Positions 1,943 through 15,618 of a stretch of DNA of 64,000 nucleotides are shown one piece after another. The notes beneath the pieces are model-generated. The model saw only the letters and a program-made list of their open reading frames with translations. It made no database searches and had not been told where the DNA came from. Source of the stretch: Syntrophorhabdaceae bacterium (GTDB lineage Bacteria; Desulfobacterota; Syntrophorhabdia; Syntrophorhabdales; Syntrophorhabdaceae); contig CAXXUO010000001.1 of NCBI GenBank assembly GCA_963666485.2, positions 288,001 through 352,000 on the forward strand. Direction: 5' to 3'. A program made the position numbers and the translations under genes. Position 1 is the stretch's first letter. Each line of letters begins with the position of its first letter.

Positions 1943-3430
1943 TCATCGGGTTTTCAGGGCATTCGTGATATCGTCGCTCTTCCATCCCCCGCCGAGGGCT
2001 TTGATGAGAAGAACGCTGGCGGCCATCCGCCTACCGAGTATGTCTATTGCCACCCTTTCAGCATTCAACGCAGCCGCCTGGGCGACGACCACGTTCAGGT
2101 AGCTTACGGTCCCCTGTTCGTATTGATTAAGGGAAAATTCCAGCGATTTGCGTGCCGCGGCAAGGGCTTCGTCCTGCGCCTTCGATTCCTCCTCGAGGAT
2201 CCTGAGCGCCGCCACGTTGTCCTCGACCTCCTTGAAACCGGTAAGCACGGTCTGGCGGTACGAGGCAACCGCGGCATCGTAGGCCGCCCTCGACTGGTCG
2301 GTCAGGGCCCCTCTCAAACCGCCATCGAAAAGGGTCTCGCTGACAGCGGGGCCGACTGCCCAGTAGCGGCTTGGCCACGTAAGCCAGTTGGAGCTCTCGG
2401 TGCTTTCATAGCCGCCGGTCGCGCCGAGCGTGACCCGGGGAAAGTACGCTGACAGGGCCACGCCGATCTGCGCGTTTGCCGCCGCGACCCTGCGCTCCGC
2501 CGCCGCTATGTCGGGCCTGCGCTCGAGCAGGTCGGACGGCAGGCCGACAGGGACATCCGGAGGAGTAAATACAAGCTTCTTGACCGGCAGCGAAAAAGAC
2601 GATGCAATTTTCCCGGTCAGCACGGCAATGGCATGCTCCAGTTGAGCGCGCTGGACGCCGGTATCGATCGCCTGGGCTTTCGTCGTTTTCAGCTGGGTCT
2701 CGGCCTGCAACACGTCGGCGCGGGTAGCGACACCGCTTTCATACTGGTTCTTCGTCAATTGCAGCGATCTCTCGTACGCGGCGACCGTTGCATTGAGAAG
2801 TTCCCTTTGCATGTCCAGTATCCGCAGCTGGAAATACGCAACCGCAAGTTGCGACTGGCTGCTCAAACGGATCCCTTCGAGGTCTGCGGCGCTCGCTTCG
2901 GCCCCCGCCTTCGCGGCTTCCACGGTCCTCCTGATGCGGCCCCAGAGGTCAAATTCCCAGGAGACGGTGACGGGCAAGAGAAAATTGTTGTAGGGGGAAG
3001 CGGAGGCTCCGGATTCGGTGTTGTTGGCCGATCTCTGAAGACGCGTCACTGACGCCCCGGCCGTGATCGTCGGGAAATATGCCGACTGCGCAGCCTGGAT
3101 GAGGGAGCGCGCCTGCCGGAACTGGGCCTCGGCCGCGATCACGGTCTGGTTGGAAACGTTCACCTCGCCGGCAAGGGTATTCAAGTCGTGATCCCCGAAT
3201 ACCTCCCACCAGGGGCCCCGGGCGATCGCGTCGCGCGGCTGCGCAACCTTCCAGCCGTCGATCTCTTTGTATGTTTCCGGCACGGACATCGTCGGCCGCA
3301 CGTAATTCGGGCCGACCGAGCAGGCCGCGAGAACGGCTGCAGCGATCACCGCAAGACAAAAGCGGGAGGTGCGGAACGTATCATTCGCCTTTTTTATTGC
3401 CGCCAGTATACCCATTCGATCAGATATCAT
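1943..3430 (-). CDS. RND efflux outer-membrane factor lipoprotein (NodT/OpmB family)
   Basis: LAAC lipobox, GPNYVRP, WWEVFGD, PSDLLERRPDIAAAER, LIKALGGGW. Confidence 0.93.
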   Translation of the reverse strand: MISDRMGILAAIKKANDTFRTSRFCLAVIAAAVLAACSVGPNYVRPTMSVPETYKEIDGWKVAQPRDAIARGPWWEVFGDHDLNTLAGEVNVSNQTVIAAEAQFRQARSLIQAAQSAYFPTITAGASVTRLQRSANNTESGASASPYNNFLLPVTVSWEFDLWGRIRRTVEAAKAGAEASAADLEGIRLSSQSQLAVAYFQLRILDMQRELLNATVAAYERSLQLTKNQYESGVATRADVLQAETQLKTTKAQAIDTGVQRAQLEHAIAVLTGKIASSFSLPVKKLVFTPPDVPVGLPSDLLERRPDIAAAERRVAAANAQIGVALSAYFPRVTLGATGGYESTESSNWLTWPSRYWAVGPAVSETLFDGGLRGALTDQSRAAYDAAVASYRQTVLTGFKEVEDNVAALRILEEESKAQDEALAAARKSLEFSLNQYEQGTVSYLNVVVAQAAALNAERVAIDILGRRMAASVLLIKALGGGWKSDDITNALKTR

Positions 3431-3438
3431 AGTCTACC

Positions 3439-6400
3439 TCAGGCTTCCGGTTCCATGTATATATTTTTCATGCCGCTTCTCTTGCTCTTGCACCACAACC
3501 TGAACCGGTCGAGGTACAGGTACATGACGGGCGTCGTGTAGAGGGTCAGCATCTGGCTGATGACGAGCCCCCCGACGATCGTGACCCCTAAGGGACGCCT
3601 CAGTTCGGAGCCGACCCCGAACCCCAGTGCCAGGGGCAGCGCCCCGAGGAGCGCGGCCATCGTGGTCATCATGATGGGGCGGAAACGCAAAAGGCACGCT
3701 TCATAGATCGCCTCTTCGGGCCCTTTTCCCTGGCTGCGCTCTGCCTCGAGGGCAAAATCGACCATCATGATGCCGTTCTTTTTCACGAGACCGATGAGCA
3801 GGAAAAGACCGATGAGCCCGATAAGGTTCAGCTCCATGCGAAAGATGATGAGCGCGAGCAGTGCCCCGACGCCTGCCGAAGGCAGCGTCGTCAGGATGGT
3901 AATGGGGTGCACGTAGCTTTCATACAGAATGCCGAGAACGATATAGACGGTCAGGATGGCGGAGAGGATGAGAAGAGGCTGGTTGGCAGCGGCATCCTTG
4001 AACGCCTGGGCGGTGCCGGAAAAGCTGCCTCGGATCCCTGCCGGGAAATTCATCTCCTGTTTCGCTTTCTCTATGGAGGCGACCGCATTCCCGAGCGGTA
4101 TTCCCGGCGCAAGATTAAAGGAGACCGTAACGGACGGGAATTGCCCCTGGTGGGCGACGGCGAGCGACGTCGCGGTCCGCTCGAATTTCGCAAAACTGCT
4201 GAGCGGGACCATCTTGCCGGTCGTCGATTTTATGTAGATCTCCTTCAATGAGTCCGGGTTCTGCCAGAAACGCGGGTCGACGACCATCACGACACGGTAC
4301 TGGTTGAGGAGCGTGTAAATGATGGAGACCTGCCTCTGGCCGAAGGCGTCGTAGAGGGTGTTGTCGATCATGGCGGCAGTAATGCCGAGGCGTGAGGCCG
4401 TGTCCCGGTCGATCGTCAGCATGGCCTGCAGCCCCTTTGTCTGCTGGTCGCTGTTCACGTCGACGATCTCCGGCAGAGAGCGCATCATCTGCACAAGGGG
4501 CGGCCCCCAGTCATAGAGCACCGAGATGTCGGATGCCTGGAGCGTGTACTGGTACAGTGCGGCGCCTGCCCGTCCCCCGATGCGCAGGTCCTGCACGGAC
4601 TGGAGATACGTGGGTGCCCCCGGAAGCCCGGCAAGTTTTTTCCTAAGCCGCGACATGGTCTCGGTCAGGCTGCTTTTGCGCTTTTCAAAAGGCTTCAACG
4701 TGATAAAAAGGTTCGCGGTGTTGGCCGCCCCCGCCCCGCGGCCGCTGCCGCCCGTGAAGCCGGTCACGTACTCCACTTCAGGGTCTTCCTTTACTATGTT
4801 GACCACGGTAGACAATTTTTCCTTCATGCTCTGGAAAGAGACATCCTGTTCGGCCTGGATCGTACCGCGCAGCCGGCCGGTGTCCGTCTCCGGGAAGAAC
4901 CCCTTGGGAACGACAATGAAGAGAAACACGTTAACAGCGAAGGTGCCCATCATGATCACGAACATGAGGCGCGAGTGGCGCAGCGCCCACCGGAGGGTCA
5001 CATCGTAGAGGTCCCTCATCCTGTTGAAAATCCCTTCGCTCATCCTGTAAACCCAGTGATGCGCATGGGTCCTCTCCGATCTCAGGAACACGGCGCACAT
5101 CATCGGTGTCGTCGTGAGCGATATGACGAGTGAGATCATGATGGCGGTCGACAAGGTCACGGCAAATTCCCGGAACAGGCGGCCCACCATACCGCCCATG
5201 AGAAGGATGGGTATGAACACGGCGACGAGGGACAAGCTCATAGAGACGACTGTGAACGCTATCTCCCTCGACCCGCGCAGCGCTGCGTCCCGGGGAGAGA
5301 GTCCTTTTTCCATATAACGCGTGATGTTCTCCAGGACAACAATGGCATCGTCCACCACGAACCCGGTAGCGATCGTCAGGGCCATCAGGGAAAGGTTGTC
5401 GAGGTTGTACCCCATGAGGTACATCACCCCGAACGTGCCGACGAGCGACACGCCGACTGCGACGGCGGGGATAATGGTGGAGCGGACATGCCGTAAGAAC
5501 CCGAACACAACGAGAATAACGAGCGCTGCGGAGAGAAGAAGCGCATGCTCGACGTCTTTCAGCGAACCTCGAATAGGCGGCGTACGGTCCTGTACAACGG
5601 AAAGTCTCGTGCCGCCCGGTAGAGACGCCGTCATCTGGGGCAGGAGCTCGCGGACACGGTCCACCGTCTCGATTATGTTTGCCCCCGGCTGGCGGAAGAC
5701 TATCACCGAGACCGACGGTTTCCCGTTCATAAGGCCCATCGTGTTGATGTCTTCGACCGAATCCTGCACGTTGGCCACATCGGTGAGCCGGACCGCCGCC
5801 CCCGACCGGTAGGTCACGATCACATCCCGGTACTCGGCGGCCTTGCGCAGCTGATCGTTGGCCGTGACCTCCCAGGTCCTCGTAGCATCCGAAACCTGCC
5901 CTTTCGGCCTGTTGACATTGGTCGATGTAAGGACGCCGCGCACGTCCTCGAGGCTAATCGCATATTTGTTCAATGCCTCGGGGTTGATCTCCGCGCGGAC
6001 GGCCGGCAGCGAACCGCCCCCGACAAACACCTGGCCCACCCCCTTCACCTGGGCCAATTTCTGCTGAAGTATGGTGGATGCGGCATCGTACAGCTGGGGC
6101 ACACCCATCACGTCAGACTGGAGGGAGATGAGAAGAATAGGCGCATCAGCCGGGTTGACCTTACGGTATGTCGGGTTGTTAGGAAGGTTTGGCGGGAGGA
6201 ATCCCCTGGCCGCATTGATGGCCGCCTGCACATCTCGCGCCGCCCCGTCAATATTGCGATCGAGGTCGAACTGGAGCGTGATGTTCGTGGTGCCGCGGAA
6301 GCTGGTCGATGTCATCTCCGTCACGCCGGCTATCCTCCCGAACTGTCGTTCGAGGGGCGCCGCAACCGAGGTGGCCATGGTCTCAGGGTCGGCCCCCGGA

Positions 6401-12747: not shown

Positions 12748-13467
12748 TTATCCAGGATGGTGCGGATCCCAAAATGGGCCCGTTTTCCCCAGTTTTTGGA
12801 ACGCTATGATCATTTCCGGCCCGTATTCCTTGAGGTGCGACAAATAATCGTGCTCCATTCTTTTCCTGAACAGCGGGCCGCTAAAGACCGTTGCCCAATC
12901 AGGCAGCGGCATGATCGAATCCGCTGAAATGGGATCGTACGATGACCATTTCTTCGCATGCTCTTCCGACCGGAAGAGGTTCATGCGGCTTCAGGCCATG
13001 CCCCAGGGCACTTCCTGTGTCAGTGCCTTGGCAAACGGGACGTTGACATGCCCGACCACGGACGGCGGGTCTATCCCGATTATGCGATCGTCCCGCATGT
13101 GCACGCGGATCGGCTCGCCGCAATCAAGACAGCGTGTTTCAATAAGGACGTCTTTTCCGGGAAATAGCCAGCGTACCGCCAGCGATTCCATCCCTCACTG
13201 GCCGTACCACTTCCGGACCCCTGCTATCGAGATCAAATAGTGGGTAGGGACATTCGAGAACGGCGCCCACGATTCGATATAGTCGGTATCCTTGACAAAC
13301 CAGCACGCCACCGCAGATTGGGCAGCCTTGTGCTGTATATTTCTTGCTTCTTCAGGCGGTAATCCCAGGATGTCCCCGAGTTCGGTATAATGAGGCGCCC
13401 TACCGGTCTTTATGAAATGATCTAACACAGCAGTATATGCTCGCTGAACCAATACATCGTTTTCCAT
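12748..13467 (-). CDS. MerB-like organometallic lyase, predicted selenoprotein with two Sec (U91, U159), 239 aa
   Basis: ORFs 13195-13467, 12991-13191 and 12748-12984 are in one frame separated only by TGA: WYGQ-TGA-GMESL and PWGMA-TGA-SRMNLF; aligns by eye with MerB WCALD and FCCHVHFF; final stop TAA; GGAGGAG RBS at the start. Confidence 0.85.
12955..12987 (-). promoter_or_regulatory. SECIS-like hairpin after second UGA
   Basis: UGA-AGC-CGCAUG-AAC-CUCUUCC-GGUC-GGAAGAG-CAUGCG; perfect upper and lower stems, GG-led loop 19 nt from UGA. Confidence 0.8.
13159..13194 (-). promoter_or_regulatory. SECIS-like hairpin after first UGA
   Basis: UGA-GGGAUGGAAUC-GCUGGCG-GUA-CGCUGGC-UAUUUCCC; G-led apical loop 18 nt from UGA. 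Confidence 0.7.
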
Positions 13468-13604
13468 CGTCTCCTCCTGTCCAGGGTAGGGAATAGAACA
13501 CGTGTGGTGGACGAAGAGTATTATTCCCTCGTGAAAACGTATGGTTCTTCGTATCGCCTGTCAAGGCCGGTCCGGAGACAGAAGAATGAGGCAGAGGATC
13601 TATA

Positions 13605-14279
13605 TCACATCTTTTTGAGGGTGACCAGGTAGAGCCTTTTCGGCAACCCGGTTTCTTCAAATTCCTCGATATCTATGACATCATAGCCTTTCGCCAGACG
13701 TTGAACCGTCTCCCGGTCAAAGAAATGCACGACGAAGCCGCCCGTGATCTCCCACATGTCATCACCGTGGTCCGCCCCCGTCCGATAGTGAGGGTCGTCT
13801 GCATTGCGCACGGTGTATATATTGAGTCCGCCCGGTTTCAGGATACGGCGGACCTCACCCGACAATTCTTCAAGCTCGGGGGTTGTAAGGGCCATGCAGT
13901 AAAGCATGTGGGAATAGCAGGCGTCGAAGATACCATCGTCAAAGGGCAAAGTCCTCCTCACATCGTGACATGTCGTCCCGACCAATGACGAAACATTATG
14001 GGCCTTCGCTTCCTTCATGACCGCATCGAGCCCTTCCTCGCTATAATCAAGGGCACAGACCTCAAAACCCTGCTCAGCGAAGAAGATGGTATCGCGTCCC
14101 TGTCCACTGCCCAGCTCGAGGACCCTTCTCACGCCCCGGGCCTTAAAAAGATCGCAGGCCTTCACGGCGGCATAGCTTGGCTCATTCCCGAACATCTGCG
14201 TGTGCTGAACGAACATTCTCTGCCAGTGGCCCCGCTGACCGTTCAGTACGTTCCTGTCCTTTTCATCGCCGTTATCCAT
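13605..14279 (-). CDS. class I SAM-dependent methyltransferase
   Basis: VLELGSGQGRD motif I, FDACYSHM, RILKPGG; start could extend to 14324. Confidence 0.88.
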   Translation of the reverse strand: MDNGDEKDRNVLNGQRGHWQRMFVQHTQMFGNEPSYAAVKACDLFKARGVRRVLELGSGQGRDTIFFAEQGFEVCALDYSEEGLDAVMKEAKAHNVSSLVGTTCHDVRRTLPFDDGIFDACYSHMLYCMALTTPELEELSGEVRRILKPGGLNIYTVRNADDPHYRTGADHGDDMWEITGGFVVHFFDRETVQRLAKGYDVIDIEEFEETGLPKRLYLVTLKKM

Positions 14280-14391
14280 TCCGCCTCCGGGCCCGGCCGC
14301 GATCTTTGCGGACCATCCGGCCATTTCATCATTCTATTATAGCAGGGTGCCCCTTAAGGTACATGCGGCCCATTTCCCGGTCAAGATATCC

Positions 14392-14420
14392 TTGACATAA
14401 AAAATGGTGCTTTCTATACT
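14392..14420 (+). promoter_or_regulatory. sigma70-type promoter upstream of pilT pair
   Basis: TTGACA-17 nt-TATACT. Confidence 0.65.
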
Positions 14421-14538
14421 TTACGCTATAATTCTTGAAAAGAAGCGCAGCTTCATCTTTTTTCTCCTGTACCTGATTTAAAGGACATCTCTCGCAGCAC
14501 AGGAATAATTCAAATCTTCTTTGACGTGGAGACTTTTT

Positions 14539-15618
14539 ATGGCTGAGCTGGATGAAGTACTGATCGAAGCGACGAACGCCAGGGCATCGGACCTGCACCT
14601 GGTACCCGGAGAACCTTTTGTCATCCGGCAATTCGGGCGCCTGATAAAGATGGAGCGCCCCTCCCTGGCCCGTGAAAAATGCGAATTCCTTATTTATGAA
14701 CTTCTCGATGACGAACAAAAGGAGGCCCTCGACAAGAGGCTCCAGCTCGATTTCGCCTATCAGATAGACGGGGTCGCCAGGTTCCGCGGCAGTGCGATGC
14801 GGCACCATGCAGGGATCAGCGCATCCTTCCGGATCATCTCATTCGAGATCCCTACATTTGAAACCCTCGGCCTCCCCGATACGATGAAAAGGATCATGGA
14901 CAATCACCAGGGACTGGTCCTTGTGACCGGCGCGACCGGACAGGGGAAATCGACAACGCTGGCGGCCATGGTCGATTACGTCAATACGAACCGGGCCCAT
15001 CACATCCTTTCAATAGAAGATCCTATTGAATATGTTCACCCCTGGAAGAAATGCGCCGTCAACCAGCGGCAGCTGGGCCGTGACACGCTGGCCTATGCCA
15101 ATGCTTTGCGGGCCGCGCTTCGCGAGGACCCGGATGTCATTGTGGTGGGCGAGCTCAGGGACCTCGAGACGATCGCCCTCGCCATTTCCGCGGCGGAAAC
15201 GGGCCATCTCGTCCTCGGGACGCTGGCCACGTCGAGCGCCCCGAAGACCATTGACCGCATCGTCGATTCATTCCCGGCCGGGGAACAGGGGCAGATCCGG
15301 GCCATGCTGGGCGAATCGTTGAAGGCGGTCATCACCCAGAGGCTTATCCCGCGCGCCGATCTCACTTCGATGGCCCTGGCGCTGGAAATATTGATCGGGA
15401 CGCTTCCCATGGCCACGCTCATCCGGGACGGAAAGGTCTTTCAAATCCCCTCGATGATGCAGATGGGAAAGGCTCTCGGCATGCAGATCATGGACGAATC
15501 GATCATGGCGCTGTTTCAGTCAAAGGCCATCAGCGCAACGGAGGCATACCTGAACGCGAACAACAAGGCCCCTTTCAAGCCGTTGATGGAAAGAGAAAAC
15601 CAGACCAGAACAAATTGA
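14539..15618 (+). CDS. pilT: type IV pilus retraction ATPase PilT family
   Basis: ASDLHL, GATGQGKSTT Walker A, EDPIEY, ALREDPDVIVVGELRD, ETGHLV. Confidence 0.9.
   Translation: MAELDEVLIEATNARASDLHLVPGEPFVIRQFGRLIKMERPSLAREKCEFLIYELLDDEQKEALDKRLQLDFAYQIDGVARFRGSAMRHHAGISASFRIISFEIPTFETLGLPDTMKRIMDNHQGLVLVTGATGQGKSTTLAAMVDYVNTNRAHHILSIEDPIEYVHPWKKCAVNQRQLGRDTLAYANALRAALREDPDVIVVGELRDLETIALAISAAETGHLVLGTLATSSAPKTIDRIVDSFPAGEQGQIRAMLGESLKAVITQRLIPRADLTSMALALEILIGTLPMATLIRDGKVFQIPSMMQMGKALGMQIMDESIMALFQSKAISATEAYLNANNKAPFKPLMERENQTRTN

Follow-up and report, generated by a model that had tools for sequence, protein, structure and literature searches.

Introduction

The lyase MerB acts by protonolysis of the carbon-metal bond, and selenocysteine (Sec) is distinguished from cysteine by its low pKa. 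Three residues, Cys96, Asp99 and Cys159, are essential in MerB (PMC8261052). SaoL is a MerB-family (PF03243) protein of anaerobes in which the Cys159-equivalent position is UGA-encoded. Its one Sec lies in a CU dipeptide, Cys is found at the Cys96 position with Asp three residues downstream (+3), and the gene belongs to a nine-gene SAO locus. SaoL is routinely cut in databases, and the proposed substrate is an organometal, of mercury or of another element (10.1101/2022.07.06.499078). In the available parts of the 2026 review of the prokaryotic selenoproteome, SaoL (CU, one Sec) is the one MerB-like entry and MerB is not mentioned otherwise (PMC13188914), and the corresponding parts of a 2022 review hold the same single entry (PMC9312934). 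Here we describe a second type of MerB-like selenoprotein gene, found on the minus strand of a 64,000-nucleotide (nt) stretch of DNA from a Syntrophorhabdaceae bacterium (positions 288,001 to 352,000 of contig CAXXUO010000001.1, assembly GCA_963666485.2), which is called the window in the following and to which all positions refer unless a contig or locus is named. Judged from its sequence, the locus is one real, intact, mis-annotated MerB-family gene with two Sec codons; its biochemical role is one that we infer. That a MerB-like protein can contain Sec is already known from SaoL, and what is new is a distinct clade in which both catalytic positions are Sec.

A single reading frame with two TGA codons

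The gene is a single frame of 239 codons on the minus strand (12748-13467), from an ATG at 13467 to a TAA at 12750-12748, and it is interrupted only twice, by a TGA at 13197-13195 as codon 91 and by another at 12993-12991 as codon 159. With translation table 11 three open reading frames (ORFs) are called from it, at 13195-13467 (90 residues), 12991-13191 (66 residues) and 12748-12984 (78 residues). An earlier reading made from the letters alone (the sequence-only reading) had joined these three adjacent ORFs through their TGA codons into one product of 239 residues ending at TAA. The frame bears this out, and the motifs quoted at that time are all found in the read-through product, which contains GQUGME, MAUSRMNLF and ETRCLDCGEPIRV. 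The gene and its elements are as follows.

12748 to 13467, minus strand: MerB-like coding sequence of 239 codons including two Sec codons, plus TAA (frame; Pfam MerB match; fold over residues 1-205)
13473 to 13478, minus strand: Shine-Dalgarno sequence AGGAGG, 5 nt 5' of the ATG at 13467 (direct reading)
13195 to 13197, minus strand: UGA codon 91, predicted Sec, opposite Cys96 of MerB (alignment; TGA in the 25 two-site loci and in L033 and L038, Cys in other relatives)
13159 to 13194 (core 13183-13167), minus strand: stem-loop 1, resembling a selenocysteine insertion sequence (SECIS) (fold; invariant letters; low synonymous divergence)
12991 to 12993, minus strand: UGA codon 159, predicted Sec, opposite Cys159 of MerB (alignment; TGA in 27 of the 28 loci reaching the site, Cys in Cys/Cys relatives)
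12955 to 12987 (core 12978-12961), minus strand: SECIS-like stem-loop 2 (fold, z -3.04; near-invariant in 28 sequences)

The TGA codons are not an assembly error; no alternative letter was present at either of them in the contigs of four sequencing runs, which come from one sample and may be the assembly's own source. A frame falling into three ORFs with two kept TGAs would be far more than chance is expected to produce.

Conservation of the TGA codons

The comparison set consisted of 31 related genome loci, 28 of which were tabulated at codon level. Both TGAs are found at the same columns in 25 of the 31, with 45-77% protein identity across the TGAs, and these loci come from Syntrophales, Syntrophobacteraceae, Geobacteraceae, Desulfobulbaceae, Desulfarculales and Nitrospirota. 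Two loci from Actinomycetota (L032 and L034) combine Cys91 with TGA159, two are cut by a contig end (L033 and L039), one is frameshifted (L036) and one diverges past residue 94 (L038). When an evenly drawn sample of 401 genomes from the phylum was searched with a match threshold of E <= 1e-20, the gene was matched in 40 of them, and among the matches listed nearly all had exactly two in-frame TGAs.

Database protein relatives, 120 in number, were classed by their state at positions 91 and 159. Seventy-four have Cys91 and end where the second TGA would fall, and 13 end directly after WYGQ, that is, at the first TGA. Another 25 have Trp at both positions (W/W), most simply because TGA was read as Trp (code 4) by the gene caller on short contigs. 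The others were Cys/Cys (2), Ser/Cys (1), Ser/W (2) or of other types (3). Such truncated and Trp-containing entries are what the sequence-only reading had anticipated when it claimed that standard annotation would split the locus.

Distant full-length relatives (approximately 22-30% identity), taken from an exhaustive search with 585 matches at E <= 0.001, keep Cys at both columns and Asp or Glu at +3. The column of position 159 is invariant across the relatives once U is written as C. Residues other than Cys in homologues had been named in advance as an outcome that would speak against Sec, and it was Cys that was found at both positions. Both sites show an in-frame UGA opposite Cys, with conservation of the coding sequence downstream.

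SECIS-like hairpins and selenocysteine machinery

A stem-loop of SECIS type follows shortly 3' of each UGA. Hairpin 1 begins 11 nt past UGA 91 (GCUGGCG-GUA-CGCUGGC) and has a z score of only -0.84; its core in most relatives is GCUGGC-CGUGC-GCUGGC. Hairpin 2 begins 12 nt past UGA 159 and consists of a perfect 7-bp stem with a GGUC loop (CUCUUCC-GGUC-GGAAGAG). Its energy is -18.5 kcal/mol (z -3.04), and 1 of 200 shuffles was equally good. The spacing of the hairpins and their G/U-containing loops are features that we take to resemble the fdhF element of E. coli. The genome's own selD also has Sec, at its GGGU site, with a small hairpin 11 nt past the UGA. No Rfam family was matched at either hairpin of the MerB-like gene; to our knowledge, Rfam contains no general bacterial SECIS model.

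Both hairpin stretches are near letter-invariant in 27-28 sequences, third codon positions included. Synonymous divergence was 0.46 over the whole gene, i.e. the codon differs in 46% of the pairs sharing an amino acid. Six-codon windows below 0.2 occur only just after the UGAs (approximately codons 93-97 and 160-165), with minima of approximately 0.09-0.10, and the lowest of them start at codons 94-95 and 162-164.

The genome encodes selB (402 bits), selA (618 bits) and selD (372 bits, itself containing one TGA). Its tRNA-Sec has a UCA anticodon and an acceptor stem of 8 bp. The presence of selA, selB, selC and selD was a check suggested together with the sequence-only reading, and the complete set was found. 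TGA also serves as the ordinary stop codon of the adjoining methyltransferase gene, where no hairpin follows it and where the orthologue in genome G017 ends with TAA at the same position. We consider it very probable that both UGAs of the MerB-like gene are recoded as Sec, each by means of SelB, tRNA-Sec and its own hairpin 11-12 nt downstream.

selA occurs twice in the genome, with scores of 618 and 565 bits, and so does a selB-like gene, with 402 and 338 bits, both above cutoff. The Sec loci are C3:19436-24445, C1:229833-231191 and C4:168611-170485; on contig 3 a selA and a selB are neighbours, and this selA lies in an open frame of 795 residues. The doubled genes may reflect duplicated machinery or be a trace of the 3.75% contamination. 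In a metagenome-assembled genome (MAG) of Nitrospirae, the MerB-like gene is preceded on its own strand, at a distance of approximately 900 nt, by selB (L019:3225-5108).

At positions 12959-12998 the contigs of all four metagenome runs break at hairpin 2, the word depth rises approximately 10-fold (e.g. from 6.5 to 71) and the loose contig ends run into different sequences. The exact hairpin-2 word appears to be common to homologues of several co-occurring organisms in the sample.

MerB fold and active site

The Pfam family MerB (PF03243) matches residues 70-191 of the read-through protein with 74 bits against a cutoff of 27. On raw DNA the match is 57.9 bits with the two TGAs inside it, and the MerB-like gene is the sole match to this family genome-wide. 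In a phmmer comparison with PDB sequences, U91 aligned with Cys96, E94 with Asp99 and U159 with Cys159 of MerB, and C113 aligned with the structural Cys117. It had been proposed that the UGAs stand at the catalytic Cys residues of MerB and that the acid at +3 is kept as Glu, and the alignment gives precisely this correspondence. Of 107 rows compared at +3 of site 91, Glu is found in 99 and Asp in 5. The catalytic triad Cys96-Asp99-Cys159 is not matched literally; Sec91, Glu94 and Sec159 are chemically analogous to it, not identical.

An alignment of 37 family members (A1) was the basis of a family profile and of an AlphaFold2 model. The profile matched MerB2 (5C17) in the PDB with an E value of 8.5e-31 and MerB (1S6L, 3F2G) with approximately 1e-15, over residues 20-199. 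The model had a predicted local distance difference test (pLDDT) score of 95.9 and a predicted template modelling (pTM) score of 0.91, and the significant PDB matches to it in Foldseek were only MerB and MerB2 (11 at E <= 0.001, template modelling score up to 0.69). The MerB fold covers residues 1-205, which in the model align to residues 16-209 of MerB2, and residues 206-239 form a family-specific helix and tail. The protein of 239 residues is predicted to be cytoplasmic and, according to the model, has the complete MerB fold.

A CxxC motif (CLDCG; C113 and C116, approximately 13120-13131, minus strand) is kept throughout the family and in many of the distant Cys/Cys relatives, and it sits at a beta-hairpin turn in the predicted model. 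The segment resembling a winged helix-turn-helix that had been noticed at the N-terminus does exist, as MerB's own N-terminal domain; the idea of an added DNA-binding module did not hold. A separate module of this kind was rejected on the grounds that residues 1-71 have no significant Pfam match (best E 0.036) and align to the N-terminal domain of MerB2.

Relation to MerB, SaoL and other family members

The catalytic positions align one to one with those of MerB (E. coli R831b; 3F0P, 1S6L) and MerB2 (Bacillus megaterium; 5C17), and Cys113 lies opposite the structural Cys117 of MerB. The identity, however, is 16-25%. Both catalytic Cys residues are replaced by Sec here, and Glu is found in place of Asp99, where MerB2 has Ser. 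The CxxC motif (C113/C116) and the 34-residue C-terminal extension are extra, only the first Cys of the pair (Cys117) being present in the known enzymes, and there is no merA, merT or merR context. Identity as a canonical MerB was rejected, as the protein scored 27.8 bits against a cutoff of 200 (NF033555) and 29.5 bits against 193 (NF009710) and as there is no mer context.

The protein is not SaoL either. With the SaoL model NF040728 it reached 41 bits against a cutoff of 140 (34.9 bits on DNA). SaoL has a single Sec in a CU dipeptide, whereas here there are two Sec residues, the second in MAUSR and not in a CU dipeptide, the residue at +3 is Glu instead of Asp, and there is neither a SAO neighbourhood nor any conserved neighbourhood. 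The NCBIfam models of the SAO set (the ABC transporter SaoA/P/B, SaoE, SaoC, SaoT and SaoD) gave no match in the six flanking genes, the individual models not having been searched genome-wide. No SAO gene set was found by Pfam in the flanks of the 31 related loci, and no SaoL was found genome-wide.

A maximum-likelihood tree of 71 rows was made with a quick IQ-TREE search, with support from the Shimodaira-Hasegawa-like approximate likelihood-ratio test (SH-aLRT) only. The family forms one clade (SH-aLRT 98), and the window gene belongs to a subclade of 33 rows (99) comprising 28 with Sec at both positions (U/U), 2 with Cys91, 2 Ser/U and 1 Ser/Cys. Sec159 is nearly universal, whereas at position 91 at least three changes between U and C are seen. 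The Cys91/Sec159 forms of Actinomycetota and Chloroflexota and the rare Cys/Cys forms (P0012, P0048) belong to the same clade (98% SH-aLRT) and share the motifs WYGQxGxE, CLDCG and xSRMNLFRSEEH and the same site-2 hairpin; they differ in having Cys at 91, and some are fused to a nucleotide cyclase. The Ser91 variants P0004, P0009 and P0010 (Ser/Cys or Ser/TGA; DNA codons not seen) nest inside the U/U subclade. Sequencing error is an unlikely source of Ser91, because P0004 represents 25 member sequences.

The family also occurs in Nitrospirota, Actinomycetota and Chloroflexota. The Nitrospirota sequences are nested among those of Geobacteraceae, and horizontal transfer is therefore indicated. 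The distribution is patchy; when 19 other genomes of the genus were searched the gene was present in 2, and among 40 relatives it was present in 4. It is a stand-alone accessory gene, patchy and partly horizontally spread, outside any mer or SAO system.

In the two Actinomycetota MAGs with Cys91/TGA159 (L032/L034:6001-7182) the MerB-like sequence is extended, in the same frame, by a class III adenylate/guanylate cyclase domain (PF00211, 40.6 bits), and in P0175 an AAA domain follows the Sec159 segment. L034 contains a further MerB-family ORF, which is truncated (3137-3835), and there is an O-methyltransferase gene upstream; L032 has a S-adenosylmethionine (SAM) methyltransferase gene and a DsrE-like gene upstream.

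Co-occurrence with mercury methylation genes

The genome has adjacent genes matching HgcA (447 bits) and HgcB (115-120 bits) (contig C9:149370-150623, locus L043), and the organism is therefore predicted to be a mercury methylator. The hgcAB genes adjoin a gene for an efflux protein of the resistance-nodulation-division (RND) type, CusA/CzcA-like.

In the phylum sample, HgcA was above cutoff in 21 of the 40 genomes carrying the MerB-like gene and in 100 of the 361 others (odds ratio 2.9, Fisher p 0.002, uncorrected for kinship). At genus level an HgcA match was held by 15 of 24 genera with carriers and by 80 of 231 other genera. Sec use as the cause of this enrichment was rejected, because SelA was present in 375 of the 401 genomes; genome size and relatedness are left as possible confounders. 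The co-occurrence with hgcA is loose and hints at no more than an association, with no evidence of a shared pathway.

Proposed function and alternatives

Our preferred interpretation is that the locus is one two-Sec gene of the MerB fold, with recoded UGAs, coding for a MerB-like organometal lyase as a stand-alone accessory gene; to this interpretation as a whole we would assign a probability of roughly 0.55. The two selenolates, deprotonated at physiological pH, would act as ligands to the soft metal(loid) in an alkyl- or aryl-metal compound and thereby polarise the carbon-metal bond. Glu94 could give a proton to the leaving carbon, and the hydrocarbon would be released (protonolysis). The metal would remain held by both Se atoms until taken over by an acceptor such as a thiol or sulfide. 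The most likely substrate would be methylmercury or a comparable alkyl of a soft metal(loid) that anaerobes encounter. The organism itself has hgcAB. Methylmercury has been reported to be demethylated abiotically by selenoamino acids (PMC10114901). By analogy with MerB, the chances of a MerB-type lyase activity seem to us about even, with methylmercury the leading single substrate and other metal(loid) alkyls comparably likely.

Several observations weigh against a lyase of this kind. Mercury held between two selenolates would be very hard to release and there is no MerA, which makes multiple turnover on mercury doubtful. The lack of a mer operon nearby, noticed at the outset, holds for the genome as a whole, with no MerA above cutoff (best 339.6 against 454.45) and no MerT found. 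The fusions to a cyclase (L032/L034) and to an AAA domain (P0175) suggest that the domain can act as a sensor, and Ser91, as found in some variants, should disable a lyase of the MerB type. None of seven window neighbours compared with the 31 loci by tblastn recurs, and all-against-all clustering of 1229 flank ORFs gave no shared neighbour family, only the gene's own pieces and antisense shadows. The link to hgcA is only an enrichment, with 100 HgcA-positive genomes lacking the gene. Nineteen of the 40 carriers are without HgcA above cutoff, two of these having HgcA fragments at contig ends. Carriers also tend to have larger genomes, mostly 4-6 Mb, and the sampled genomes are related. The case for SECIS elements has weaker points too: hairpin 1 is unexceptional by energy (z -0.84) and rests mainly on conservation, and compensatory changes are not available as proof because neither stem varies.

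The points on turnover, fusions and Ser91 would be accommodated if the two-Sec protein were not a catalyst but a site of very high affinity for a soft metal or organometal, used for sensing, sequestration or hand-off. We regard this as unlikely, yet deserving of attention. The fused relatives would control a cyclase or ATPase and the stand-alone form would buffer or chaperone the metal. The class III nucleotide cyclase fusion in two Actinomycetota loci and the AAA domain past the Sec159 segment of P0175 fit this role, as do the tight binding expected of Se-Hg-Se, the lack of a conserved enzymatic partner and of a MerA to take the product, and the persistence of Ser91 variants. However, Sec is usually selected for catalysis over simple binding, and an acid is present at the Asp99 position in 104 of 107 rows, as expected for proton delivery, although such an acid may also serve as a ligand of the metal. 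The architecture as a whole, with its N-terminal domain, is that of the MerB enzyme, and residues 1-71 have no significant match to a DNA-binding family (best E 0.036).

It is also conceivable, but in our opinion very unlikely, that U91 and U159 form a diselenide/diselenol redox centre and that the protein is a reductase or isomerase without any organometal chemistry. Two Sec residues would share one pocket if the MerB alignment holds (Cys96 and Cys159 bind the same Hg), the conserved CxxC (C113, C116) is close in sequence, and most bacterial selenoproteins are redox proteins (PMC13188914). Nevertheless, the fold is that of MerB and not thioredoxin-like, the Sec sites have no motif of the UxxU/CxxU type, the conserved context contains no redox partners and the +3 carboxylate fits the MerB triad.

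That the gene is not a selenoprotein gene at all, the TGAs being real stops in a decaying pseudogene or in three small genes, or coding for Trp or another residue, is hardly credible: standard gene calling does yield three ORFs, 25 database entries do have W at both sites and a few relatives are broken (L036 frameshifted, L038 diverging past residue 94), but the TGAs occupy the same columns in 25 loci, are kept in nearly all the matches listed from 40 of 401 genomes and lie within conserved protein sequence, they stand opposite Cys and not Trp in relatives, one compact fold needs all three pieces (pLDDT 95.9), hairpins with synonymous-site constraint lie past both TGAs, TGA is an ordinary stop in the neighbouring methyltransferase (TAA in G017), and the genome has the full Sec apparatus.

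Significance

The two-Sec MerB-like family was not found in the selenoprotein catalogues searched; Haft & Tolstoy 2025, which could bear on priority, was outside this search. There was no MerB, mercury or lyase term in the BSepDB paper (main text and one supplement) or in the main text of the deep-Sep paper, and no MerB term in Peng et al. 2016 or in the GOS paper of 2008. In an hmmscan against NCBIfam release 20, no model claimed the protein. The family is a common but uncatalogued selenoenzyme design, in which the two metal-binding residues of the MerB active site are predicted to be Sec. Although it is present in 40 of 401 genomes, public protein sets contain it almost only as fragments or as miscalls with TGA as Trp.

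According to Christakis et al., no genome in their survey with MerB alone encodes HgcAB (PMC8261052). Here hgcA and the MerB-like gene were found together in 21 genomes of a single phylum sample; it is therefore probable that counts of merB made from predicted proteins miss some genes of MerB type in methylators. Should the protein cleave methylmercury or another metal alkyl, it would provide a route to anaerobic demethylation and a link between selenium and mercury at the enzyme level. A bolder proposal is that it is a dedicated Se-dependent methylmercury (organometal) demethylase of anaerobes, a lyase independent of mer that uses two selenolates to split the Hg-C bond, present in methylators and their neighbours and wholly missed by protein-based merB surveys owing to truncation at the Sec codons. 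We consider this improbable, but such an enzyme would help to account for the unexplained anaerobic 'reductive' demethylation of bacteria with hgcAB, and net accumulation of methylmercury would then be linked to the available selenium.

Genomic neighbourhood

On the minus strand, a promoter region that also serves the divergent pilT is followed by a SAM methyltransferase gene, a 137-nt gap and the MerB-like gene. Downstream, a 244-nt gap is followed by a GNAT-like ORF and then by RND efflux genes of the MdtABC type. The methyltransferase gene is the following feature.

13605 to 14324, minus strand: SAM methyltransferase, with likeness to the methyltransferase domain of MduS (276 bits against a cutoff of 380, profile positions 5-216 of 338)

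MduS is a double selenoprotein defined by Haft & Tolstoy 2025, as given in a review table (PMC13188914). The methyltransferase in the window lacks the Sec-bearing C-terminal part of MduS and has weak matches to ArsM and TehB. It was considered as a second selenoprotein and rejected, as the profile match is partial, read-through adds nothing, no hairpin follows the TGA and the orthologue in G017 ends with TAA.

The methyltransferase does not accompany the MerB-like gene consistently. In genome G002 the two genes are on different contigs, in the genus-level comparison of the insertion site only the methyltransferase itself aligns, and only three of 32 loci, namely the window, L032 and L034, have a gene for a SAM or O-methyltransferase beside the MerB-like gene. 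The Pfam matches of 104 flank ORFs were heterogeneous. A conserved operon was rejected, no recurring neighbour having been found by tblastn, flank clustering or Pfam.

A further frame, orf159 (14329-14808, minus strand, 159 codons), was rejected as a gene. It has no family match, overlaps pilT, a divergent gene (14521-15618, plus strand), at its 5' end and is probably spurious. A scan for promoters and terminators gave counts no better than those of shuffled sequences. Inside orf159 there is a strong sigma-70-like site, TTGACA-17-TATACT, at 14392-14420 on the plus strand.

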